This document shows positions 26,239 through 50,077 of a DNA stretch of 64,000 bases, piece by piece (position 1 is the first letter of the stretch; the number at the start of each line of letters is the position of its first letter). Below the pieces are notes generated by a model that saw only the letters and a program-made list of their open reading frames with translations, was not told where the DNA came from and ran no database searches. This stretch comes from Candidatus Woesearchaeota archaeon (lineage in GTDB: Archaea > Nanobdellota > Nanobdellia > Woesearchaeales > DATGWN01). Made by a program: the position numbers and the translations under genes. The stretch covers positions 8,171 to 72,170 of the forward strand of contig JBLKOU010000001.1 of assembly GCA_047603125.1 (NCBI GenBank), in the 5' to 3' direction.

Positions 26239-27888
26239 ATGAGTAAAGCAGAGCAATTAGCAACCAAGCAGCGTGAAATTGGTGTTGCAGAATTTTTTGC
26301 ACGAAATAGACATCTTCTTGGATTTGATAATAAAGTAAAAGCACTCATGACAACAATTAAAGAGGCTGTCGATAACTCCCTTGACGCATGTGAGGAGGCA
26401 GAAATACTTCCTGAAATTATTGTTGAAGTCATTGACATGGGCAATGATCGTTTTAAAGTAGTTATCGAGGATAATGGCCCTGGTATTGTGAAAAAACAAA
26501 TTCCAAAAATCTTTGCAAAACTCTTATATGGTTCGAAGTTTCATTCATTAAAAATGAGCCGTGGTCAACAAGGTATTGGTATCTCTGCATCTGTTTTATA
26601 TGGTCAGCTTACAACGGGCAGACCCGCAAAAATTACATCGAAAACGGGACCAACAGATCCTGCGCATTATTATGAATTGAAATTAAACACAAAAACAAAC
26701 GAGCCTGAAATTGTCACTGACACAATTATAGATTGGCCAAAGGAAAGTGGAACAAAAATTGAAATTGATTTGGAGGCAACATATCAAAAAGGCGCACGCT
26801 CGATTGATACGTATTTAAAACAAACAGCCATCACAAATCCGCATTGTACAATTATTTATACAAATCCGAAAGCTGAGCAAATTATTTTTCCACGAGCAAT
26901 TGAAGTTATTCCGGCAGCTGCTCAAGAAATTAAACCGCACCCATATGGGGTTGAATTAGGAACATTGCAGTCGATGTTAGAAATTACACCGGCAAAAACA
27001 GTTCAATCATTTTTACAAACTGAATTTTCACGTGTAAGCGCACAAGTTGCAAAAGAAATTTGTGAGAACGCAGCTTTATTGCCAAATACATCTCCGAAGA
27101 AAATAACGCGGGATCAAGCAGAAAAAATTATTCGTGCAATTGCCAAAACTAAGATTATGGCGCCGCCAACTGACTGTATTTCTCCAATTGGTCAAGATCA
27201 GCTAGAAAAAGGGTTGAAAAAAGAAATTAATGCGGAATTTTATACAACGATTACACGCTCACCAAGTGTGTATCGAGGAAACCCTTTTATTATAGAAGTT
27301 GCAATTGCCTACGGAGGAGATCAGCCTGCAGATCAGCTTGCAAATGTGATGCGATTTGCAAACCGAGTTCCACTTTTATATCAACAAGGAGGCTGTGCGG
27401 TAAATAAAGCAGTCTCAAGTTTAAATTGGAAGCCGTATGGGTTACAACAGAGTAGAGGTTCTGTACCTGCAGGTCCATTGACAATTGCTGTTCATATCGC
27501 TTCGGTCTGGGTTCCGTTTACTTCAGAGAGTAAGGAAGCGATTGCGCATTATCCTGAAATTATAAAGGAAATGAAATTAGCATTACAAGAAGTTGGAAGA
27601 AAACTGGGAACATATATTAATAAGAAAAAACGTGTTGGTGTTGAATTAAAAAAACGCTCCTACATTCAAAAATATATCCCACATGTAAGTGCTGCGTTGT
27701 TAAAATTATTAGAATTACCTGATGATAAAAAGGCAGATTTAGAAGAAAAGCTCGCTGCAATTTTAGAAAAAACGCGAGGAGAAATTGAAGAGCTTGCTTT
27801 TGATGCATCAAAAAATAAAGATTTTGACAAAGAATTTGCATCGATAGGAAGAAATGATCAAGAGGAGGAAACAGAAGATGAGTTCTAA
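26239..27888 (+). CDS. top6B: DNA topoisomerase VI subunit B
   Basis: GHKL ATPase Bergerat motifs ([20 protein letters not shown]), transducer domain. Confidence 0.95.
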
Positions 27889-34323: not shown

Positions 34324-35057
34324 AGCCATACACACTATTATTTGAGGATGCAAGTATGTATTTACTTGACACATTGGAACAAGATTTTCATTGCTCAGCA
34401 GGTGTTGTTCCAAAAGAACAACTCATTGTTGGAAAAACAGTTATGACGAAAAAAGGTGTGCAAGGGCATCTTTCAAAAACTCGTTTTGTGGATGGCTTTC
34501 GAAAATTAAAACGCGGCGCACAAATAATTACGCCAAAAGATATTGGCCATATTCTTGCACATACATTCGTTGATAAGCAAACGGTCTGTATTGATGCAGG
34601 TGCAGGAAGCGGTGCAATGTCGTGCGCACTCGCACATTATGCAAAAAAAGTATATTGTTATGATGTTCGCGAAGATCATTTGGCACTTGCACTTGATAAT
34701 GCACAAAAGCTTGGTTTGAAAAATGTAGTTGGCACATTACATGATGTGTATTCTGGTTTTAAACATAAAGCCGATGTTATTGTTCTGGATTTACCCGAAC
34801 CCTATAAATGTGTTGAGTCAAGTGCAAAAGCTCTTTCTATTGGTGGTTATTTAGTATGCTATGTTCCAGGTGCAAATCAGATGCATCAAGTAAGTGTTGC
34901 ACTAATGAATCATCCGAGTTTTCATGTGTTAAAATCAATAGAGTTAATAGAGCGTGAATGGAAAATTGGTGAGAAAGTACTGCGCCCGCAAACAAATAGT
35001 TGTATGCACACAGGATTTTTAGTGTTCGCAAAGAAAGTAAAAGATGTTGAGAATTAA
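34320..35057 (+). CDS. trmI: tRNA (adenine-N1)-methyltransferase TrmI (Gcd14 family)
   Basis: GCD14-like N-terminal beta domain; SAM motif VCIDAGAGSGAMS; VIVLDLPEP. Confidence 0.7.
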   Translation: MKPYTLLFEDASMYLLDTLEQDFHCSAGVVPKEQLIVGKTVMTKKGVQGHLSKTRFVDGFRKLKRGAQIITPKDIGHILAHTFVDKQTVCIDAGAGSGAMSCALAHYAKKVYCYDVREDHLALALDNAQKLGLKNVVGTLHDVYSGFKHKADVIVLDLPEPYKCVESSAKALSIGGYLVCYVPGANQMHQVSVALMNHPSFHVLKSIELIEREWKIGEKVLRPQTNSCMHTGFLVFAKKVKDVEN

Positions 35058-36817
35058 ATTTTATATAATTCGTTTTTTTGAATTTGCTCTTGTTCCATTT
35101 GTGAATGAGCTTTATTTGCCCGTGGTCTGTTTGTCTGTTCATCTCTACGAAATGTGAGTTGCACGTCTTGTAAAAAAGTGTTCATTCCTTCTTGTAGGCC
35201 AAATGGACCCATGACGTGACCTGATTTTGCAGGTTCACCTTCAAATACGAGGAGTTTATCACTGAGATAATCAATAAAAAGAAGGTCGTGGTCTATGATG
35301 AGTGCAGTTTTCCCATTTTCGACAGCAAAATCCTTGAGTATCTTTGAGACAACAAGTCGTTGTTCTGTATCTAAATATGCACTTGGCTCATCAAGCACAT
35401 AGAGGTTTGCTTCTTGGCTTAAACAGTACGCGATTGCAACATTTTGTAATTGTCCTCCGGAAAGAGAATTGAGAGGCTGGAGCGCAATCTTATCAAGTTG
35501 AAGTGGTTTTACTAAAATATGTTCGAATTTTTCAAATGCAGTTGAAAGAACATTCATAACAAGTTCTTCGCTTTGCGTATCAATATGTTGCGGTTTGTAT
35601 GAGATTTTTGTCTGTAAGTCAATTGTCCCATCTGTTGGTTTTTCTACACCAGCAAGCAATTTTGCAAATGTGGTTTTTCCAATACCGTTTTCTCCTAAAA
35701 TTCCAATTACATCTTTTCTTTGCAATTCTCCAGGTTTTACGGTGAGTGTAAACGATCCTTGCTTTTTTGTAAGCTGCGGCCATTGCGTTAAGGTTGCCTG
35801 TTCTTTATCTGAGCGTTCTTGACGAGTATGAAAGTGTATTTGATGATCGCGAAATTGGACATTCTCTTCTTTTAAATATCCATCCAAATACATATTAATT
35901 CCTGCTTTTGCAGATTTTGCTTGACTGACAATTCCGTATGCCGTTTGACTTCCATAAATGATGTGAATAACATCGGACATATAATCAAGCATAATTAAGT
36001 CGTGTTCAATGACCATAACGGCTGTGTGTTCATCAGCAAGTTCTCGGATAAATTTTGCCAATATGATGCGCTGTTTAATATCTAAAAAGCTAGAGGGCTC
36101 ATCAAAAATATAGACATTTGCTGTTTTTGTGGCAGTTGCACCGATTGCAACACGTTGGAGTTCTCCTCCAGAGAGTGTTTGTATGTCTTGGGTGAGTAAA
36201 GGTGCAAGATGTAATTTTTCAATAACCATTTGCAGACGAGTTTGATCTGAAGCTGCTTTTTCTAAGAGTGTTTGTACAGTGCCTTGAAACTGTGTTGGAA
36301 TAAAATTAATTGCTTGCGGTTTATATGCAACAGTGATTTTTTTATCTCTGAGTTGCTCAAAATATGTTTGGGCAATTGTTCCCTTATAATGATTGATAAG
36401 CTTTTGATATGTGGTGTCCGGCTCATTTTCTCCGAGGTTTGCAAACTCGATGCCACTTAATATTTTTACTGCTGTCGATTTTCCAATACCGTTTCTTCCA
36501 ACAAGCCCAACAACTTTTCCCATAACGGGGATAGGAAGATTATAGAGACGAAAACCATTTTCGCCATATCGATGAATGGGGTTACTTTGCGCTTCTTGGG
36601 GAAGTCTGACAAGTTTAATCGCGTTAAATGGACATTTTTTTGCACAGATTTGATGTGCTTGTGTTGTCACATCTTCTCCAATAGCTGCTTTTCCATCTTC
36701 GCCTATATGAAATCCTACGCCACCCATTCGATTTACAGGATCAAATTTAATACATTCATGTGCACAAGTGTGCGGACTACATCTTTGCTTATCGACAATA
36801 GCAAGTCTTTTTTCCAT
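35054..36817 (-). CDS. abcE1: ABCE1 (RNase L inhibitor/Rli1) ribosome-recycling ATPase
   Basis: N-terminal tandem 4Fe-4S ferredoxin cysteines (CSPHTCAHEC...CAKKCP) followed by two ABC domains; start at ATG 36817. Confidence 0.9.
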   Translation of the reverse strand: MEKRLAIVDKQRCSPHTCAHECIKFDPVNRMGGVGFHIGEDGKAAIGEDVTTQAHQICAKKCPFNAIKLVRLPQEAQSNPIHRYGENGFRLYNLPIPVMGKVVGLVGRNGIGKSTAVKILSGIEFANLGENEPDTTYQKLINHYKGTIAQTYFEQLRDKKITVAYKPQAINFIPTQFQGTVQTLLEKAASDQTRLQMVIEKLHLAPLLTQDIQTLSGGELQRVAIGATATKTANVYIFDEPSSFLDIKQRIILAKFIRELADEHTAVMVIEHDLIMLDYMSDVIHIIYGSQTAYGIVSQAKSAKAGINMYLDGYLKEENVQFRDHQIHFHTRQERSDKEQATLTQWPQLTKKQGSFTLTVKPGELQRKDVIGILGENGIGKTTFAKLLAGVEKPTDGTIDLQTKISYKPQHIDTQSEELVMNVLSTAFEKFEHILVKPLQLDKIALQPLNSLSGGQLQNVAIAYCLSQEANLYVLDEPSAYLDTEQRLVVSKILKDFAVENGKTALIIDHDLLFIDYLSDKLLVFEGEPAKSGHVMGPFGLQEGMNTFLQDVQLTFRRDEQTNRPRANKAHSQMEQEQIQKNELYKI

Positions 36818-36920
36818 GTGCGTGTGAACTTGTTTGTGTTTTATAAAGGTAGTGGGTCTATGGGCGTAATTGTGGTGATATTTCAATAAGTTTAAAAAAC
36901 CAAACAAAGTATAGTTTGTT

Positions 36921-39900
36921 ATGAGGTTTGCGTTATTTGTATTCGGACTCTTTTTACTCGCATCAGTGAGTATTTCCTTTGCACAAACACAGACCTATTT
37001 TGTGGAATTTGTGGATCAGAGTCCAGAATTAGAGTCGAGTCAGACCCTTCGAATACAATCTATGAATCAAATGTCACGGCAAGATATTCGCGAAGTGGCA
37101 CTTTCTCGGTTAGTTGATGATGAGGTGCGTGATACTCGATCAGGAGATATGCGCGTACAGCATTCGCAGATAGAGGAGTCATCATTGACTATTAGACATG
37201 TTTATGAACGCTATGGGAATATGATTGCCATGGATTTAACTCCTGAGCAAAAGTCTCAATTATTAGATTCAGAACTGGTAACAAGAATAACAAAAAGTTT
37301 GCCGGTGCAAGCGTTTTTAAGCGATACAATTGATTTACTTGATATACCTGCGATATGGGCTTTAGAAATAAATGGTGAGCCAGTGGTGGGTTCTCAAGTA
37401 ACAATTGCTGTAATTGATACTGGTATTGATTATACGCATAGTGCATTTGGTAATTGTGAGCGAACAGCAAATATTTCGGATGGAAGTTGCAGTAGAGTCA
37501 TAGGGGGTTATAATTATATAGATGGAAATGATGATCCTTTTGATGATAACGGTCATGGAACACATGTGGCTGCGATTGTCGGAGGGAATTGGGCTCAGCC
37601 AGGAGTGGCGCCCGGTGTTGATTTTCTTGCATATAAAGTATTGAATTCTACAGGTGGTGGAGATTTTAACGATGTTGTTGCTGCCATTGAGCGTGCGGTT
37701 GAAGATGGTGCCGATATTCTTGTTTTGAGTTTGGGAGCATATTGTGTGAACGGATATAATGGTAGTTGCGGACCAGAAGATGTTGTAAGTCAGCTTGTGA
37801 ATAATGCAACACTTCTTGATAATGTGAGTGTTGTTGTAGCAGCAGGGAATTGTGGGGGATCTCAATCGACTCAATGTCCTGATATTTATGGGGATCGCTC
37901 TATTGCAACACCAGGAGCAGCAAAGCACGCGTTGACGGTTGGTTCTATAACAAAATCAAATACGATTTCAGGTTTTAGTTCTCGCGGCCCTGTTGAGTGG
38001 ACAAATGCTTCAGGTGAGCAAAATATGACGAAGCCAAATATTGTTTCCTATGGAAGTTCAATTTCAGCGGCATGTTCTAGTGAAGATACTTTTTGTCCTC
38101 CTATACCTAATGCCAATATTTCTAAATCGGGCACATCTATGGCGGCTCCGCATGTTGCTGGTGCAGTAGCTCTTATTCGTCAAGTGGCGCCAGCACTATC
38201 TTCGGTGCAAATTAATGAGTTGTTGACATCAACGGCGCAAGATTTAGGATATGATAATAATACTCAAGGGATGGGGATGCTCAATATTACGAGGGCTTTG
38301 GGTGAAATTATTCCCATTGAGTTAGATATAATGGTTTATGAGAATGAAACTGCAGTTTTAGCAAATATCTCTGTAAATGGAACAAATTTGCAAAATTACA
38401 CGTTTTTATTTGCTCCAAATGCGTCGGCGCAATTTGTACAAATAACAAACAATACTGATCCTATAGAAAATGAACAGGTGTTCTCTCTTTTGAAAACCGA
38501 TATTGAAGATGGACAAACGCTTCACTTTGAATTAACAGCTTTCAATGTACAAGAGCAACAATTTTCATTAATCCAAAATTATACTTATTATGAAGCGCCG
38601 TTAATTACTGTTCATTCACCAATAAACCAAACAATATATGAGGCAAGTCCTATAGTTAATGTGAGCGTGACAAGCGCATCAGAAATTGATGAAATTTGGT
38701 TTTTACATAATGGTACGAATATGTCATATAATGACTCACCAAATTATACTTTTTCTCAAGGGATACACAATATAACTGTTTTTGCAAATAATACTTTTGG
38801 ACAACAATCCAGTGTCTTTATTGAGTTCACAGTTAATGATACTCTTGCACCAAGATTGACAATTCATTCTCCTCTCAATACGACATATCATGTTTCTCAA
38901 ATTCCTATAAACATTTCGGCAATAGACCCTCATCTTGACCAAATTTGGTTTTTTAATGGGACACATAATGTCACGTATGAAGATCCAATAACACTCTACT
39001 TTTCAGATGGGGTTCATACGCTAATAGCATATGCTAATGATACATTTGGAAATACAAATCAAACAAATGTGACATTTACAGTGGATACGACACCACCAGT
39101 TATTACATTAGAATCTGCTAATCTCACAAATGCAAGTAAGCCTCTTTATTATTTGCACGCTTCTACAAATAGGAATCTCACTCAAGCTAATATTACGTAT
39201 TTTAATAAAACATATCCTGCCCTCATAAATGAAACGAATGTAACATATCCTTTGTATGTTCCTGTTTTTAATGAAAGTTTTTCTGTTCAAATTTCTGTTC
39301 AAGATGTATTTAATAGAACTGCACAAAAAAATGTTTCTTTGCAAGTAAATTTCAACGGAACCATAAATGGCTCTGTTTTTGGAGATGCTTTTTCAATTGC
39401 AAGTGATGTTGAGGTTTCAGTTAATGTTACGAATCAAACAGATGTGCAGCCAATTCGTATCAATCGTATGCAAACAAATCGCTCGATAGTAGAATTTTCA
39501 CATAATTTTACACAGGGATCATTGTTTTTGAATGCAATTCGCATTCGTGTGGATGAACAGGAAAATGCATCGCGCGTGTTAGTTTCAGGCGTAAATAAAA
39601 CAAAAACGGTGTATTTAGAGTTGCAAGGAAATACTTCTCGATTTTCAAGTATTTGTGTGGTTGATCGTTTAGAGTTTGATTTTGTATCTGATTGCCCACT
39701 GTATGTGGACAAATTTCCGAACAGTACTGGTTCATATAATTTTACTCGCGATAATCAAACAATTCGCTTAGAAGGGTTGCAACATTCGCAAGTGCAGCAA
39801 GTTTGTACGGAGAGTTGGAGCTGTGTGGAGTGGTCAAGTTGTAGTAGTTCTGGTGAGCAAACCTGTGACGTTTATGATGATGCAAACAGTTGTGGTACTA

Positions 39901-40274
39901 CGCACAACCAACCAGTATTGACACAGAGTTGTACACCGCCATCCCAAGACCCAGGTAATGGTGGCGGAGATTCTCCAGGAGGCCCGGGCAGTTCAGGTTT
40001 TGTTCCTGCGAGTGCACCATCAACTCAAGAGCAGACACAGCAAACTGTTGAAACACCTTCTCAAAATCAAACATTTGAAGAAGAGCCACAAGAGGATTCA
40101 CGAGATCAACAAGAGCAACAGCCAGCACAAGAAGCTCAACCTGCTGTGCAACAAGGTGAACTAACAACGCCCGCACCGCCAGTATCTTTTTGGATATTTT
40201 TTGGAATTGCAACGCTTGTGAGTGCGGTAATCGTGGGCTTTATTTTACGCCATCGTCGAGAGAAATACATTTAA
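36921..40274 (+). CDS. secreted S8 subtilisin-like serine protease fused to large glycosylation-sequon-rich repeat domains with C-terminal TM anchor (cell-surface/S-layer-like)
   Basis: Signal peptide; catalytic triad VIDTGIDYTHSAF (Asp), HGTHVAAIVGG (His), GTSMAAPHVAGA (Ser); >50 N-x-S/T sequons; Cys-rich module; PGNGGGDSPGGPGSSG linker; TM + RHRREKYI. Confidence 0.9.
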   Translation: MRFALFVFGLFLLASVSISFAQTQTYFVEFVDQSPELESSQTLRIQSMNQMSRQDIREVALSRLVDDEVRDTRSGDMRVQHSQIEESSLTIRHVYERYGNMIAMDLTPEQKSQLLDSELVTRITKSLPVQAFLSDTIDLLDIPAIWALEINGEPVVGSQVTIAVIDTGIDYTHSAFGNCERTANISDGSCSRVIGGYNYIDGNDDPFDDNGHGTHVAAIVGGNWAQPGVAPGVDFLAYKVLNSTGGGDFNDVVAAIERAVEDGADILVLSLGAYCVNGYNGSCGPEDVVSQLVNNATLLDNVSVVVAAGNCGGSQSTQCPDIYGDRSIATPGAAKHALTVGSITKSNTISGFSSRGPVEWTNASGEQNMTKPNIVSYGSSISAACSSEDTFCPPIPNANISKSGTSMAAPHVAGAVALIRQVAPALSSVQINELLTSTAQDLGYDNNTQGMGMLNITRALGEIIPIELDIMVYENETAVLANISVNGTNLQNYTFLFAPNASAQFVQITNNTDPIENEQVFSLLKTDIEDGQTLHFELTAFNVQEQQFSLIQNYTYYEAPLITVHSPINQTIYEASPIVNVSVTSASEIDEIWFLHNGTNMSYNDSPNYTFSQGIHNITVFANNTFGQQSSVFIEFTVNDTLAPRLTIHSPLNTTYHVSQIPINISAIDPHLDQIWFFNGTHNVTYEDPITLYFSDGVHTLIAYANDTFGNTNQTNVTFTVDTTPPVITLESANLTNASKPLYYLHASTNRNLTQANITYFNKTYPALINETNVTYPLYVPVFNESFSVQISVQDVFNRTAQKNVSLQVNFNGTINGSVFGDAFSIASDVEVSVNVTNQTDVQPIRINRMQTNRSIVEFSHNFTQGSLFLNAIRIRVDEQENASRVLVSGVNKTKTVYLELQGNTSRFSSICVVDRLEFDFVSDCPLYVDKFPNSTGSYNFTRDNQTIRLEGLQHSQVQQVCTESWSCVEWSSCSSSGEQTCDVYDDANSCGTTHNQPVLTQSCTPPSQDPGNGGGDSPGGPGSSGFVPASAPSTQEQTQQTVETPSQNQTFEEEPQEDSRDQQEQQPAQEAQPAVQQGELTTPAPPVSFWIFFGIATLVSAVIVGFILRHRREKYI

Positions 40275-43895: not shown

Positions 43896-44150
43896 TTAGT
43901 ATCGGAGTTTAATGTGTCCGGATTTGGCTTTACACTGGCAAGCAAGCCGCTCTTTCGGGTTCATGCCCATATCTTTTTCTTCTTGGGTTAATTCACTTAA
44001 ATTTTCTTCTCCCTGCTCAACTTCAACAAAGCAAGAACCGCAAATACCTTCCGTGCACCCGAATGGAACTCCTGCTCTTTCAGCTTCTTCTTTAAAGAAC
44101 TGTCCGTCGGGAATATCAAATTCCATGTCATTTATGATTACTTTTGCCAT
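43896..44150 (-). CDS. small [2Fe-2S] ferredoxin-like protein
   Basis: GCTEGICGSC...C.C cysteine pattern (C-x4-C-x2-C...C); divergent from suf operon. Confidence 0.55.
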   Translation of the reverse strand: MAKVIINDMEFDIPDGQFFKEEAERAGVPFGCTEGICGSCFVEVEQGEENLSELTQEEKDMGMNPKERLACQCKAKSGHIKLRY

Positions 44151-44229: not shown

Positions 44230-47200
44230 ATGGTCAGGAGTTTTCGATTATGTATGCACACGCAAGAAGAATTCACCATAGATAGGCAGCGCTATGATAG
44301 CGCAAATGAGGAGCGTTTACTCTATCGTGCAAAGGATGGGATTAGCGAGCAGCTTGTTAGAGAAATCTCAAAAAGCAAAAATGAGCCTGAGTGGATGCTT
44401 CAAAAGCGATTAAAGGGTTTTGAGCTGTTTTTAAAGATGGAAAATCCAACATGGGGGCCATCGCTTGAAAAATTAGATTTATCAAAAATTTCTTACTTTT
44501 TGCGTCCAGATGCAAAGAAAAATGCTACGAGTTGGGATGATGTCCCTGATGATATCAAAAATACATTTGATAAGCTGGGAATTCCAAAAGCAGAACGAGA
44601 AGCATTGGCTGGAGTTGGTGCACAATATGATTCTGAAACCGTGTATCATAATTTACAAAAAGAATTACAAGATCAAGGAGTGGTGTTTATTGATTGCGAT
44701 GAGGCTGTTCACAAATATCCTGATTTAGTAAAAAAATATTTTATGACAAGCTGTGTTCCTATGAATTTACATCGATATAGTGCGCTTCATGCTGCTGTTT
44801 GGTCGGGAGGGACATTTATTTATATTCCTAAGGGAGTCAAAGTAGAAAAGCCATTGCAAGCATACTTTCGTATGAATGCACGAAAAGGTGGGCAATTTGA
44901 GCATACGCTTATTATTGTTGATGAGGGTGCGGAGGTTTCTTATATTGAAGGGTGTTTTGGGGCAGGGACGCAGATAACGACAAATCCTGATTATAAGCCA
45001 ATTGAGCAAATTCGCTCAGGTGAAAAAATACTGACAAGCGAAGGAGAGTTTAAGCATTCAAAAGATATTCAAGCACAGCCATATACGGGTAAAATGGCAA
45101 AAATCCAACTCTGGGGTGATACGACGCAAACAATTAACGTGACGCAAGAACATCCATTTTTATATGTTGATAAAAAGCATGCTCGTGAGAAAAATAAGCA
45201 GTTTACTCCTCGCTGGAACATGCCAGCATATTTTCAAAAAGGAGATTATTTATGTATGCCGATTAATCAAGTTGTAAAACACAACGACGAACATACATTT
45301 GTGTATTTACGCCATATTGATGGGAAACGTGAACGCGTAGAATGGCCAGTTCAGGTGTCTGCAGAATTATTTCGGTTAATAGGGTACTATTTAGCACAAG
45401 GAAGTGTGAGTAGTAATGCGTATTTGAATTTTTCATTTCATTTTCAAGAGCGAGAGTATATTGAAGATGTGAAAAGATGTTTGAAAAAAGTATTTGGGAT
45501 AAAAAAAATACTGGAAATGCACCATAAAAAAAATAATGGGACGAGTTTAGTCGTTTGTTCTGTTGATTTGGCAAGAATCTTTAAAGAATTTGGAAAGAGC
45601 GCAAATACAAAATCATTGCCTGCATGGGTGATTTATGAAAAACCGCATCTACAAAAAGAACTGATTAAGGGCTGGTTTAGAGGGGATGGAAATTATTTTA
45701 AGAAAAAAACAGTTTCAGGGTTAAAAGAAGCAATACGAATAAATACGGTGAGTGAAAAATTGGCAAAACAGGCTCGTGATTTATTATTGCGTCAAGGCAT
45801 AGTTTCCTTTATTAATTCACAAGATCGTCAATCGACAAATAGACAAACTATGTATACTATAGGAATTGGCGGTGAATTTCTTCCCAAAATGGGGGAGCTT
45901 GTTGGAATTTCAATTTCAAAAACACTGAATGGGAAAAAGCGTGCGAGTATGTTCGGGATTGACAAGAAATTTGCATATATTCCTATACGTTCGATTACAT
46001 TTGAACAAGTAACAAATTATCCGGTATATAATTTTGGTGTGACTGATCATCAAACATTTACTGCTGGTGGCGTTGCCGTTCATAATTGCTCAGCTCCGGT
46101 ATACACTGAGAATTCGCTCCATGCAGGATGTGTAGAAATTCATGTCCTCAAAGGTGCAAGAGCAAGATATTCAAGTATTGAGAATTGGTCCAAAAATACG
46201 TATAATCTTAATACAAAGCGTGCCGTTGTTCATGATGATGGAATAATTGAATGGATTAACGGCAATTTAGGTTGCCTAACAGATTCATCAAAGGTATTTA
46301 CTAATCCCCGCGGTCCAAAAAATATATCTGCAATTTCACCGGGAGACAAAGTGCTCAGCTATGATTTTCAAGCAAAAAAAATTGTTCCTGGCACGGTTAA
46401 GCAAATGGTTTATAATGGGGATAGGGAGATTTTTGAAATAACGGCTGCAGGAAGAAGTTTAGAAGCAACTCAAAATCATCCTTTTTTAACATTAAGTAAG
46501 ACTCAAGATAATCCAAAAAAAAATTTTTATTCATATCAATGGAAACCATTGTCTCAGTTACAAGTGGGCGATATGATTTGTGTTACAAAAAACATTCCAA
46601 ACAAAGGCGAGTCTTTTCGTATACCTGCATTATCAGAATATTTACACGTTCAATCCAAAAATCAATATGCGTCTTTTTCCATGTCAACCAAACACCTCCA
46701 TAATTCGAAGATTACTATTCCAAAAAAGACCAATCCTGATTTGATGTGGCTATTAGGATTATTAATAGGGGATGGTTTTGTGGATGTTTCGCAAAATAAA
46801 ATTAATATTGCAACACATTATCTTGAAGATTATAGAGAATCGCAACTCATACGAATTCTTAAAGAGCAATTTAATTATACTGTAACTGAGAAAAAAGAAC
46901 GTTTTGTCATTATTAATTCGAAAAAACTTTGTGAATTATTTACAGTTCTTGGAGTATCGGGTACAGCAAAAACAAAACGTATACCTAATTGGGTTTATAC
47001 GCTTCCTGAAATTGAGATGGAGGCTTTTTTGGGAGGCTATTTTGATGCTGATGGACACGTACAAAAAAATGGTGCGTATTTAACAAGTTGTAATAAATCT
47101 TTATTAGAAGATTTTCGTTTATTGGCAATTCAATTAGGGTATGGTATTTCAAGAATATTTAAACATATGTCTGAGGGTACGAGAACAATTTTAGGGGTTG

Positions 47201-47997
47201 ATTGTATTGCTTCAGATAGTTTTCGATTGTTACTCAGTGGAGAAAAAATTTGTTCACTTGATTCGCGTTCGAAAAAGAAAAAGGCAAAGCTTTTACAAAT
47301 TACGTCAAAAAGAAATTTTCGAACAGCAAAGAATCAAAATTTCTCTTCAAAAACAACGGATGAAATTGGCTTTGCAAGAATTGATGCTATTATAAAAAAA
47401 GGTATACGTCCCACATTTGATATTGAGGTTGAAAAATATCACAATTTTATTGCTAATGGGCTGATTGTACATAATAGCGGAGTCACGATGCTCTACCCGG
47501 GTTCAATGTTGATGGGTGATCGTTCAAAATCTGATTTTATTGGTATTGCGCTAGCTAATAAAGATCAAAACCAAGATACTGGTTGTAAAATTATTCATAT
47601 CGGTGAGCAGACATCATCAACGATTACTTCCAAATCAATTAGTCTTAATGGCGGTATTTCAACATATCGTGGATTAGTGAGTATCCGAAAAGGTGCGAAA
47701 GGAGCAGCAACTAGTGTGGAGTGTGATGCGCTCATGATTGATAATGAGAGTCAATCAAATACATATCCGTATATGGATATTCATGAAAAAGATGTTGACG
47801 TTGCACATGAGGCTACTGTAGGAAAAATAAGTGAAGAGCAAATATTTTATTTAATGAGTCGTGGGTTGAGTGAAGAAGTTGCAAAGCAAATGATAGTTTC
47901 TGGTTTTATAGAACCAATTGTCAAAGAATTGCCACTTGAGTATGCAGTTGAATTAAATAAACTCATTGAATTAGAAATGGAGGGGAATTTAGGATGA
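44230..47997 (+). CDS. sufB: Fe-S cluster assembly protein SufB interrupted by two inteins
   Basis: Extein segments match SufB (DEGAEVSYIEG|CSAPVYTENSLHAG..., IEWINGNLG|SGVTMLYPGSMLMGD..., C-terminal SRGLSEEVAKQMIVSGF); 1255 aa = ~476 extein + 378 + 401 intein residues. Confidence 0.9.
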   Translation: MVRSFRLCMHTQEEFTIDRQRYDSANEERLLYRAKDGISEQLVREISKSKNEPEWMLQKRLKGFELFLKMENPTWGPSLEKLDLSKISYFLRPDAKKNATSWDDVPDDIKNTFDKLGIPKAEREALAGVGAQYDSETVYHNLQKELQDQGVVFIDCDEAVHKYPDLVKKYFMTSCVPMNLHRYSALHAAVWSGGTFIYIPKGVKVEKPLQAYFRMNARKGGQFEHTLIIVDEGAEVSYIEGCFGAGTQITTNPDYKPIEQIRSGEKILTSEGEFKHSKDIQAQPYTGKMAKIQLWGDTTQTINVTQEHPFLYVDKKHAREKNKQFTPRWNMPAYFQKGDYLCMPINQVVKHNDEHTFVYLRHIDGKRERVEWPVQVSAELFRLIGYYLAQGSVSSNAYLNFSFHFQEREYIEDVKRCLKKVFGIKKILEMHHKKNNGTSLVVCSVDLARIFKEFGKSANTKSLPAWVIYEKPHLQKELIKGWFRGDGNYFKKKTVSGLKEAIRINTVSEKLAKQARDLLLRQGIVSFINSQDRQSTNRQTMYTIGIGGEFLPKMGELVGISISKTLNGKKRASMFGIDKKFAYIPIRSITFEQVTNYPVYNFGVTDHQTFTAGGVAVHNCSAPVYTENSLHAGCVEIHVLKGARARYSSIENWSKNTYNLNTKRAVVHDDGIIEWINGNLGCLTDSSKVFTNPRGPKNISAISPGDKVLSYDFQAKKIVPGTVKQMVYNGDREIFEITAAGRSLEATQNHPFLTLSKTQDNPKKNFYSYQWKPLSQLQVGDMICVTKNIPNKGESFRIPALSEYLHVQSKNQYASFSMSTKHLHNSKITIPKKTNPDLMWLLGLLIGDGFVDVSQNKINIATHYLEDYRESQLIRILKEQFNYTVTEKKERFVIINSKKLCELFTVLGVSGTAKTKRIPNWVYTLPEIEMEAFLGGYFDADGHVQKNGAYLTSCNKSLLEDFRLLAIQLGYGISRIFKHMSEGTRTILGVDCIASDSFRLLLSGEKICSLDSRSKKKKAKLLQITSKRNFRTAKNQNFSSKTTDEIGFARIDAIIKKGIRPTFDIEVEKYHNFIANGLIVHNSGVTMLYPGSMLMGDRSKSDFIGIALANKDQNQDTGCKIIHIGEQTSSTITSKSISLNGGISTYRGLVSIRKGAKGAATSVECDALMIDNESQSNTYPYMDIHEKDVDVAHEATVGKISEEQIFYLMSRGLSEEVAKQMIVSGFIEPIVKELPLEYAVELNKLIELEMEGNLG
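44953..46086 (+). mobile_element. SufB intein 1 with LAGLIDADG homing-endonuclease domain
   Basis: Starts Cys (CFGAGTQ), ends HN before +1 Cys (CSAPVY); DOD motifs LIGYYLAQGSV and IKGWFRGDGNY. Confidence 0.85.
46273..47475 (+). mobile_element. SufB intein 2 with LAGLIDADG homing-endonuclease domain
   Basis: Starts Cys (CLTDSS), ends GLIVHN before +1 Ser (SGVTM); DOD motifs LLGLLIGDGFVD and FLGGYFDADGHV. Confidence 0.85.
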
Positions 47998-48932
47998 AGT
48001 ATGGCTTGTATATACGTGTCGATCCCTTCGTTGAGCTAGATTTTTCAAATGCAAGTCAAAAGTATAAACCAACTATTCAAGGCGATGCAGTTGAAATTAC
48101 TCGAAAAAAAAATGCAGGGGAGTTTGATGCAGACGTACCTGAATATACGCATATCAGTAGCAATAAAAATCAACGCATACTTATTACTGATGATGTTGCA
48201 AAAACGATTTCTCACGGTGTTATAGTTGAATGTTTTACCAATTGTCAAATTCATTATCAACTGACTTCAAAAGCTCAAGCTCTTGTGAAATTACCAATTA
48301 TTATTATTGCACATGCAAATAGTCATGTTGAATTTTTTGGAACAATTCGCCCAGAAAATTCTCATGCGGTGATTTCTCGAACGGCTAGAGTTTTAGAAGG
48401 TGCAAGAGTGGACTGGAATGAGTTACATATTGGTGGAGATTTTATTCGAGCGCCTTATTTGAATCTTTTAGAAAAACCAGAAGCCACAGGTAATATTCGT
48501 GTGTATTCGGTTGCAAGAGATGAGCATAAACACGACATTTATACTGAATCGCGACATATTGCCAATCATACCAATAGCGATATTATTACACGAAGCGTTC
48601 TTTTAGATAAATCGCAAACATTGAGTAGAGGGCTTGTTCGAATTGAAAAGGATGCATTTGGTTCACAAGGATATGAAAAACAAGACGCACTCCTTTTAGG
48701 TGAGCACGCGCAAGCTGATGCCATACCAAATTTAGAAATACAAAACCACGATGTCAGTTGTAGTCATGGTTCAACTGTAGGTCGCATTGATCAAGATGCG
48801 CTTTTCTATTTGAGAAGTCGTGGGATTTCATTGGAACAAGCGCAGCGTCTCATTATTTATAGTTACTTTGCTCCCTTTTTAGAAAATCAAGAGTCTGTTG
48901 CAAAAATACTTCAAGAGGTCTTAGAATTATGA
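47994..48932 (+). CDS. sufD: Fe-S cluster assembly protein SufD
   Basis: C-terminal helical SufBD signature (DALFYLRSRGISLEQAQRLIIYSYF); ATGA coupling to sufB. Confidence 0.85.
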   Translation: MKYGLYIRVDPFVELDFSNASQKYKPTIQGDAVEITRKKNAGEFDADVPEYTHISSNKNQRILITDDVAKTISHGVIVECFTNCQIHYQLTSKAQALVKLPIIIIAHANSHVEFFGTIRPENSHAVISRTARVLEGARVDWNELHIGGDFIRAPYLNLLEKPEATGNIRVYSVARDEHKHDIYTESRHIANHTNSDIITRSVLLDKSQTLSRGLVRIEKDAFGSQGYEKQDALLLGEHAQADAIPNLEIQNHDVSCSHGSTVGRIDQDALFYLRSRGISLEQAQRLIIYSYFAPFLENQESVAKILQEVLEL

Positions 48933-50077
48933 TGCAAAAGGCAGATTTTCCTTTCTTTGAAAAAAATCCAAATTTACTTTATTTAGATTCTGCTGCGACA
49001 TCTCTCAAGCCACAAGTGATGATTGATGCTGTTCAACAGTACTATACTGCACAAAGTGTAAGTGTGCATCGTGGATTATATCCTTTAGCAAAAAAAGTAA
49101 CGGATGAATTTGAAATGGCACGATCAATTATTGCGCAGGCAATAAACGCGAGACCCGAACAAATCGTTTTTGTGCCAAGTGTTACGTATGCATTGACAAT
49201 GCTTGCTAATAATCTTGCTTGCGGTAAACGGGTGTTATTGACAGACTTAGAACATCATGCAAATCTTGTCTGCTGGCTTGAGCAAAAAAAGAAGGGCGCG
49301 CATATTGATTTTTTATCGTTGACTCAAACCTTTGATGTGGAGTATGATGTGAACAAAATAAAAAACGCATCTATTATTTCTACAACGCATGTCTCAAATG
49401 TGACCGGAACAGTTGTTGATGTGAAACGACTGCGTCAATTTTCGCCAAATGCAACAATTATTGTCGATGGGGCACAAGCATTTGGACATATGCCTGTAGA
49501 TGTACAAGAATTAGATTGTGATTTTTATGTTTTTAGTGCACATAAATCGCTTGGGCCAACGGGCCTGGGTATGTTGTATGTGAAAGATCCTGAAGCTTTG
49601 AATCCTTTTGTTTTTGGGGGCAATATGGTTGAGCAAGTAACACAAAAGGGTGCGACATTTGTTAAAGCTCCCCATGTATTTGAAGCAGGAACACCTGCGA
49701 TTGCACAAGTCCTTGGTTTTGCAAAGTCGGTTGCATATTTACAAGAGCATTCAATTGAGCGTATTCACTCCTACATTTGTGGGTTGACAAATTTTGCAAA
49801 AGAACAACTCTCACAAATTCAAGGTTGTACATTGTATGTGCATGAACAGAGTCCGGGAATACTCTCATTTTCTGTTTCTGGTAAGCATGCACAAGATATA
49901 GTAACATTTTTAGGAGAAAGAGGCGTTTGTGTTCGTTCGGGTCATCACTGTGCAATGCCACTTATTGAAAAAATTTGTAAAGAGGGTACTGTTCGTGTAA
50001 GTTTACATGCATATAATACAAAAGAGGATATACAATTGTTTTGTAAATATTTACAAGAAGTATTACAGGTGATATAA
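48929..50077 (+). CDS. sufS: cysteine desulfurase SufS (class V aminotransferase)
   Basis: LYLDSAATSLKP, PLP-Lys region FYVFSAHKSLGPTGLGMLYV, C-terminal catalytic Cys (SGHHCAMP). Confidence 0.9.
   Translation: MMQKADFPFFEKNPNLLYLDSAATSLKPQVMIDAVQQYYTAQSVSVHRGLYPLAKKVTDEFEMARSIIAQAINARPEQIVFVPSVTYALTMLANNLACGKRVLLTDLEHHANLVCWLEQKKKGAHIDFLSLTQTFDVEYDVNKIKNASIISTTHVSNVTGTVVDVKRLRQFSPNATIIVDGAQAFGHMPVDVQELDCDFYVFSAHKSLGPTGLGMLYVKDPEALNPFVFGGNMVEQVTQKGATFVKAPHVFEAGTPAIAQVLGFAKSVAYLQEHSIERIHSYICGLTNFAKEQLSQIQGCTLYVHEQSPGILSFSVSGKHAQDIVTFLGERGVCVRSGHHCAMPLIEKICKEGTVRVSLHAYNTKEDIQLFCKYLQEVLQVI

Follow-up and report, generated by a model that had tools for sequence, protein, structure and literature searches.

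Two inteins interrupt the sufB gene of a Candidatus Woesearchaeota archaeon, one with a probably impaired homing endonuclease

In a 64,000-nucleotide stretch of a Candidatus Woesearchaeota archaeon genome (GenBank assembly GCA_047603125.1, contig JBLKOU010000001.1, positions 8,171 to 72,170 of the forward strand; hereafter the window, from whose first letter all positions are counted), sufB, the first gene of a suf cluster, is interrupted by two inteins. Its single open reading frame encodes a precursor in which three segments of SufB, the exteins, alternate with intein 1 at an insertion site we term Y and intein 2 at a site we term Z. Slashes mark the junctions:

44230..47997, + strand: sufB precursor open reading frame, 3768 nt, 1255 aa plus stop, no interruption
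44230..44952, + strand: N-extein, aa 1-241, C-terminal end ...VSYIEG
44953..46086, + strand: intein 1, 378 aa, aa 242-619, site Y, YIEG/CFGAGT...GVAVHN/CSAP
46087..46272, + strand: middle extein, 62 aa, CSAPVY...EWINGNLG
46273..47475, + strand: intein 2, 401 aa, aa 682-1082, site Z, NGNLG/CLTDSS...GLIVHN/SGVTM
47476..47997, + strand: C-extein, 173 aa plus stop, SGVTMLYP...EMEGNLG, holding the equivalents of E. coli C405, H433 and E434

Excision of both inserts leaves a protein of 241 + 62 + 173 = 476 aa. The joined exteins match the sufB model TIGR01980 in one stretch (residues 20-467 against model positions 3-448 of 448, 699.4 bits), as they do PF01458 (1-232 of 232), and in the unspliced precursor the matches to both models are each broken into three stretches. 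The precursor scores 651.3 bits with TIGR01980, so that both it and the spliced extein pass the cutoff of 346.4. Aligned to E. coli SufB (5awf_A, E 6e-106), the joined exteins run without a gap across both junctions and keep the residues numbered Y224, R226, N228, C254, W287, K303, C405, H433 and E434 in E. coli; the position of Q285 is Glu in the window. The exteins differ from consensus at just 2 of 174 conserved positions, which is the family median. By these profile and sequence comparisons the host protein is SufB, a TIGR01980 equivalog. The original prediction, a reading of the letters alone, had described a 476-aa SufB interrupted twice, and its coordinates, lengths and boundary residues prove exact: both junctions were precisely located, with an insert 1 of 378 aa that starts with Cys and ends in His-Asn before a +1 Cys at YIEG/CSAP, and an insert 2 of 401 aa that starts with Cys and ends in His-Asn before a +1 Ser at NGNLG/SGVTM. 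The extein-only alignment that it had proposed as a check is contiguous with TIGR01980, PF01458 and 5awf_A alike.

The NCBI version of the protein (P0001, 1247 aa, 100% identical to the window protein) begins at Met9, ATG 44254, and sufB may start there rather than at 44230. ATG 44254 is preceded, 13 nt upstream, by an AGGAG at 44236-44240, and the SufB model match of the longer frame begins only at residue 20. NCBI names P0001 'MAG: SufD family Fe-S cluster assembly protein [Candidatus Woesearchaeota archaeon]', though the SufB cutoff is passed, and the same SufD misnaming is found on many intein-bearing SufB homologues. Judged by its profile score, the public 'SufD family' label on the sufB precursor is a misnomer.

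In the alignment to 5awf_A, site Y (YIEG/CSAP) corresponds to E. coli G253/C254 and site Z (NGNxG/SxVTM) to G322/S323. A third recurrent site, X (extein 134/135, GAQYE/S), corresponds to D147/S148; it is empty in the window, at about nt 44629-44634 (GAQYD/SETVY). C254 of E. coli SufB is the accepted initial persulfide acceptor (bioRxiv 10.64898/2026.05.18.725997). Since site Y is G253/C254, the +1 Cys of intein 1 is therefore the C254 equivalent, that is, the persulfide acceptor.

We compared each insert with its own intein family, extracted at sites Y and Z from the 120 best SufB homologues (66 members for Y, 74 for Z). Intein 2 carries Cys1, T66-x-x-H69, a block F with Asp383 and His390, the terminal H400-N401 pair and a +1 Ser. 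Its C1, H69, D383, H400 and N401 are kept in 73-74 of the 74 family members, and it is off the family consensus at 1 of 77 highly conserved positions. It passes the splicing-domain models PF14890 (65.9, cutoff 35.8), TIGR01443 (35.7, cutoff 15.6) and TIGR01445 (25.6, cutoff 24.5). An AlphaFold2 model built from the family alignment reached a predicted local distance difference test (pLDDT) of 91.8 and a predicted template modeling score (pTM) of 0.90, and its best Foldseek match in the PDB is the TliVMA intein 7qsu (E 1.2e-23, template modeling (TM) score about 0.7). On this model, intein 2 is a class-1 intein with a Hint fold into which a LAGLIDADG endonuclease domain is inserted.

Intein 1 has the corresponding residues Cys1, T64-x-x-H67, a terminal H377-N378 and a +1 Cys, conserved across its family (C1, H67, H377 and N378 in 66/66, T64 in 65/66), and is off consensus at 4 of 84 highly conserved positions. 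The two inserts share only about 22% identity, and because of this we take them to be independent elements, not products of a duplication.

Both inserts contain two LAGLIDADG blocks, as the original prediction had it. LAGLIDADG_3 (PF14528) matches intein 1 with 61.4 bits and intein 2 with 54.4 bits (cutoff 22.5), far beyond chance, and Foldseek matches the predicted alpha-beta-beta-alpha-beta-beta-alpha fold of the endonuclease domains to I-DmoI and I-OnuI, as for monomeric enzymes with two motifs. The motifs lie as follows:

45376..45405, + strand: intein 1 LAGLIDADG motif 1, LIGYYLAQGS, with Gln149 (codon CAA, 45397-45399)
45661..45690, + strand: intein 1 LAGLIDADG motif 2, LIKGWFRGDG, catalytic Asp245 present
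46750..46776, + strand: intein 2 LAGLIDADG motif 1, LLGLLIGDG, catalytic Asp167
47026..47055, + strand: intein 2 LAGLIDADG motif 2, FLGGYFDADG, catalytic Asp260

The predicted LAGLIDADG helices of intein 1 terminate exactly at Q149 and D245, those of intein 2 exactly at D167 and D260. D167 and D260 are kept in 72-73 of the 74 relatives of intein 2, which has both acidic residues; intein 1 has none at the end of its first helix. Position 149 is Glu in 64 of the 66 members of the intein 1 family, where the window holds the sole Gln, and in all 80 loci from species-representative genomes, a count that is unbiased for this position as the pattern used for retrieval ended one residue short of it. 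The CAA codon is one base off GAA. Carboxylates at these positions of LAGLIDADG enzymes hold the metal ions needed for catalysis, and replacing them by amides abolishes or cripples cleavage. Because Gln149 replaces the catalytic Glu, the intein 1 endonuclease is probably impaired, being inactive or at most a nickase, and that of intein 2 looks intact. The check on endonuclease intactness that the original prediction had proposed thereby came out well for intein 2 (D167/D260) and not for intein 1, with its Gln149 in place of the Glu of 64/66 and 80/80 relatives. Only one detail of the sufB allele is unexpected, namely that one endonuclease of the two has uniquely lost a catalytic Glu. The empty sites, the 42-bp sequences that would be the endonuclease targets, read:

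Empty site Y: gaggtttcttatattgaaggg/tgctcagctccggtatacact
Empty site Z: tggattaacggcaatttaggt/agcggagtcacgatgctctac

We then mapped insertions across the 120 best full-length SufB homologues, for which the counts of combinations are exact in the length-filtered set and those of single sites approximate. About 45 homologues are occupied at Y only and about 48 at Z only, 17 besides the window carry Y+Z, two X+Z, two X+Y, and four all three (X+Y+Z, 1567-1636 aa), with site X occupied in 8 of the 120. Open reading frames of 1200 aa or longer are found in at least 10 of the roughly 55 species-representative genomes with a site-Y intein, and double alleles are thus common among carriers. The original prediction had called the double-intein allele uncommon, a view that the 17 Y+Z homologues, together with the X+Z, X+Y and X+Y+Z alleles, do not bear out. 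Carriers include archaea, DPANN and others (Woesearchaeota, Nanoarchaeota, Pacearchaeota, Aenigmatarchaeota, Micrarchaeota and Bathyarchaeia), bacteria of the candidate phyla radiation (CPR; Magasanikbacteria, Woesebacteria, Saccharibacteria and others), and Omnitrophota, Chloroflexi and Dormibacterota among other bacteria. None of the 120 SufB proteins nearest to the window extein has an intein, and YIEG/CSAP and NGNxG/SxVTM are intact in them; they are 71-80% identical to it and come mostly from Woesearchaeota. In a neighbor-joining tree of exteins the window allele falls in a clade of nine of which eight members are intein-free, and the tree implies no fewer than 32 state changes at Y and no fewer than 27 at Z. 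This is the classic sporadic distribution of homing elements.

Further observations bear on the two families. One homologue, P0023 (995 aa), has a 148-aa mini-intein without an endonuclease domain at site Z beside a full-length intein at site Y; the mini-intein represents the same element family further along in its decay. The inteins at site X (P0014-P0017, P0032, P0043, P0073 and P0103) are 33-40% identical to the site-Z family and about 22% identical to the site-Y family. These sequences suggest that one intein family relocated within the gene to a second site; sites X and Z share a +1 Ser. Relatives of intein 1 at 30-34% identity in the representative library (P0246, P0248, P0260, P0265 and P0281) sit within CxxCxxC 4Fe-4S ferredoxin-type motifs of other proteins, with junctions such as ...HN/CVFCGFC... 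and ...SN/CVDACPF..., sometimes two per protein. By sequence, the intein 1 lineage seems to favor cysteine motifs of iron-sulfur (Fe-S) proteins.

The window inteins have diverged from those of the homologues: identity is 45-62% for Y and 42-54% for Z, and 60-76% when the exteins of those homologues are compared. No copy of intein 1 closer than 62% was found among 1.84 billion representatives, and the best identity for intein 2 among 5.8 billion proteins is 59%. The GC content at third codon positions (GC3) is 0.27 in intein 1, 0.21 in intein 2 and 0.22-0.30 in the exteins and neighboring suf genes, so that the base composition of the inteins matches that of the neighboring genes. Scans of viral contigs returned distant relatives only for both inteins (24-28% identity) and gave no evidence of a viral vector for either. 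A recent horizontal arrival was considered and rejected, there being no close donor and no compositional anomaly. The original prediction had seen in the double allele the mark of an active or recent invasion; with best identities of 62% and 59%, below the extein identity to the same proteins, and a GC3 like that of the neighbors, this part of it does not hold. These comparisons suggest that each intein has been resident for a long time and has diverged; the families to which they belong are widespread among DPANN archaea, CPR bacteria and Chloroflexi.

The reading we prefer, and hold to be very likely on sequence and model evidence, is that two independent class-1 inteins splice from the precursor to give a normal SufB, that the endonuclease of intein 2 is intact and that of intein 1 probably decayed, and that both elements are long resident. 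Translation of sufB would yield the 1255-aa precursor, from which each intein would excise itself by the standard four-step class-1 route: an N-S acyl shift at Cys1, a trans-esterification onto the +1 residue (Cys for intein 1, Ser for intein 2), cyclization of the terminal Asn, and a final acyl shift. Joining of the three exteins would then produce the normal 476-aa SufB as a partner of the co-transcribed SufD, SufS and SufC. From the intact catalytic residues we infer that the precursor does splice to a functional protein of this length. At the level of DNA, spread would occur when the endonuclease cuts an empty sufB allele and repair copies the allele that bears the intein. Intein 2 may, by its motifs, still be mobile, and the change of Glu149 to Gln in intein 1 would represent an early step in the decay phase of this homing cycle.

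Several points weigh against this reading. Block F of intein 1 has Asn360 where class-1 inteins usually have Asp (Asn in 66/66 family members and in a broader alignment), and the canonical block F His position, aa 367 (nt 46051-46053), is Gln (in the family Glu in 60/66, His in 4 and Gln in 2). With the Intein_splicing model PF14890 intein 1 scores 25.5, below the cutoff of 35.8, and TIGR01443 and TIGR01445, models of the intein N and C termini, do not match it. The case for splicing and for endonuclease activity is made from sequence and predicted structure, and the Gln149 call comes from one metagenome-assembled contig, in which an assembly or sequencing error is possible. The tree and the allele counts draw on biased samples, each being the top 120 matches of a different query, with two queries pooled in the tree.

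Because the profile scores of intein 1 fell below cutoff, its fold was tested. A search of the PDB with the intein 1 sequence gave no match. The AlphaFold2 model from the family alignment has a pLDDT of 94.2 and a pTM of 0.91, and its best Foldseek match in the PDB is again TliVMA 7qsu (E 1.6e-18, TM about 0.7). For the models of both inteins, PI-SceI, PI-PkoII and PI-PfuI come after 7qsu, and free-standing LAGLIDADG enzymes (I-DmoI) next. By its conserved residues and predicted structure, intein 1 too is very probably a class-1 intein with a Hint fold and an inserted LAGLIDADG endonuclease domain. As Asn is invariant across the intein 1 family, its presence in block F is, on the alignment, a family-wide trait and not decay. 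The splicing blocks that the original prediction had listed for checking were recovered as to Cys1, TxxH and His-Asn in both inserts and the block F Asp and His of intein 2, and not as to block F of intein 1, with its Asn360 and Gln367.

The sites and elements can be set beside systems already described. In the M. tuberculosis SufB precursor the intein lies at Gly252(-1)/Cys253(C1), positions -5 and -38 are His and -36 is Asp, the +1 residue is Cys612, and the C-extein has 235 aa (PMC8891592). The window protein likewise has 235 aa C-terminal to site Y after both excisions, and the +1 residue is Cys in both it and M. tuberculosis SufB (Rv1461, 'Pps1'). Where M. tuberculosis has His -5, the window reads YIEG/C and its homologues read HYIEG/C; where M. 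tuberculosis has Asp -36, the window has Glu, within a conserved V-x-x-P-L-Q-A-Y-F-R. From the published coordinates, site Y appears to be the M. tuberculosis SufB intein site. The M. tuberculosis intein and intein 1 are both of class 1 by these comparisons, about 360-380 aa long and equipped with a LAGLIDADG endonuclease domain; M. tuberculosis has one SufB intein, whereas the window has two and the host is a DPANN archaeon. Among the best 150 matches in the representative library there was neither an 846-aa protein matching intein 1 at 253-611 nor a recognizable mycobacterial SufB. SufB inteins sit at different sites in different species, including M. leprae ('SufB-b'), M. xenopi and Ferroplasma acidarmanus (PMC8891592, PMC5050341), in agreement with the three sites X, Y and Z seen among the homologues. 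A comparison with known SufB sites had been part of the original prediction; of the three sites it matched Y, from published coordinates.

The predicted folds match the Hint and endonuclease domains of the TliVMA and PhoVMA inteins, PI-SceI, PI-PkoII and PI-PfuI (E 1e-14 to 1e-23, TM 0.6-0.75), yet these elements are only 12-19% identical to the window inteins and occupy other hosts, and intein 1 differs further in having Gln for the first catalytic acid. Two inteins in one protein are also known from M. smegmatis DnaB (PMC6195587). As there, inteins of different families interrupt one essential protein and both must splice; unlike there, the window inteins interrupt an Fe-S scaffold within its beta-helix core, with 62 residues between them.

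We weighed three other explanations for the allele. The most substantial, which does not exclude the preferred one, holds that intein 1 has been domesticated: no longer mobile and endonuclease-dead, it would be retained as a redox gate, a conditional-splicing switch on SufB, such that under oxidizing conditions a disulfide forms between its Cys1 and Cys+1 and SufB maturation is held back. The +1 Cys of intein 1 aligns with the persulfide acceptor C254 (bioRxiv 10.64898/2026.05.18.725997), the site matches that of M. tuberculosis SufB (G252/C253, H-5, C+1 612, 235-aa C-extein; PMC8891592), where oxidation blocks splicing through just such a Cys1-Cys+1 disulfide (PMC8529194), and intein 1 has intact splicing residues alongside a lost endonuclease Glu. 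However, the endonuclease motif is kept intact by 64 of 66 members of the family, a sign of ordinary selfish homing; close relatives of this SufB are for the most part intein-free, so the host has no need of the intein; and a single substitution on a single contig is thin evidence for domestication. On balance we consider this reading unlikely. Were it true, the idea of conditional splicing proposed for M. tuberculosis SufB would extend to DPANN archaea.

That one or both inserts are dead for splicing, leaving sufB a disabled, decaying gene in a reduced DPANN genome whose owner obtains Fe-S clusters otherwise, strikes us as very improbable. DPANN genomes are indeed reduced, and the non-canonical block F of intein 1 (Asn360, Gln367) and its sub-threshold scores with the splicing models could be taken in this sense, but Asn360 is invariant in 66/66 family members and the broader alignment, the 3768-nt frame is open with all nucleophiles and the TxxH and His-Asn residues present, the exteins deviate at no more than the family median of 2/174 conserved positions, and sufD, sufS and sufC adjoin with overlapping start and stop codons. 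We reject as scarcely credible the notion that the double allele is an assembly chimera of two populations, one with a site-Y and one with a site-Z intein. In its favor are the origin of the contig in a metagenome-assembled genome and the frequency of both single-intein alleles among related organisms; against it, the Y+Z architecture recurs in 17 further contigs, independent and of different origin, with more in the representative library and the genome collection, no break occurs in the 62-aa middle extein, and composition is uniform.

Downstream of sufB come the sufD-like, sufS and sufC genes, whose start and stop codons overlap or abut, and a divergent ferredoxin gene lies upstream:

43896..44150, - strand: 2Fe-2S ferredoxin gene, 84 aa, divergent, upstream of sufB
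47994..48932, + strand: sufD-like gene, 312 aa, start overlapping the sufB stop
48929..50077, + strand: sufS cysteine desulfurase, 382 aa
50077..50808, + strand: sufC ATPase, 243 aa

Elsewhere in the window three genes together confirm an archaeal genome:

4604-7048, + strand: GyrA, a frequent intein host, here without an intein
26239-27885, + strand: topoisomerase VI subunit B
35054-36904, - strand: ABCE1/RLI

An S8 subtilase of 1117 aa (36921-40274, + strand) has many N-x-S/T sequons, a Pro/Gln/Glu-rich linker and a hydrophobic C-terminal anchor, and is, judging by these features, probably a glycosylated surface protease. Hidden Markov models of the three SufB intein families found no further inteins in the window. 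A scan for sigma-70 promoters and terminators, uninformative for an archaeon, stayed near the expectation from shuffled sequence.

The two-intein sufB is real but largely ordinary, in that the arrangement is common in the lineage and the window adds no new mechanism. Within the searchable literature we came across no account of SufB alleles with two or three inteins from DPANN, CPR or Chloroflexi. Mycobacterial SufB inteins have been studied as possible stress sensors and drug targets, and here the same site, and a second one, are filled in an uncultured archaeon. With three recurrent sites, all combinations and abundant empty alleles, SufB offers a large natural dataset on the intein homing cycle, one that shows the cycle in a metabolic gene and not a replication gene.

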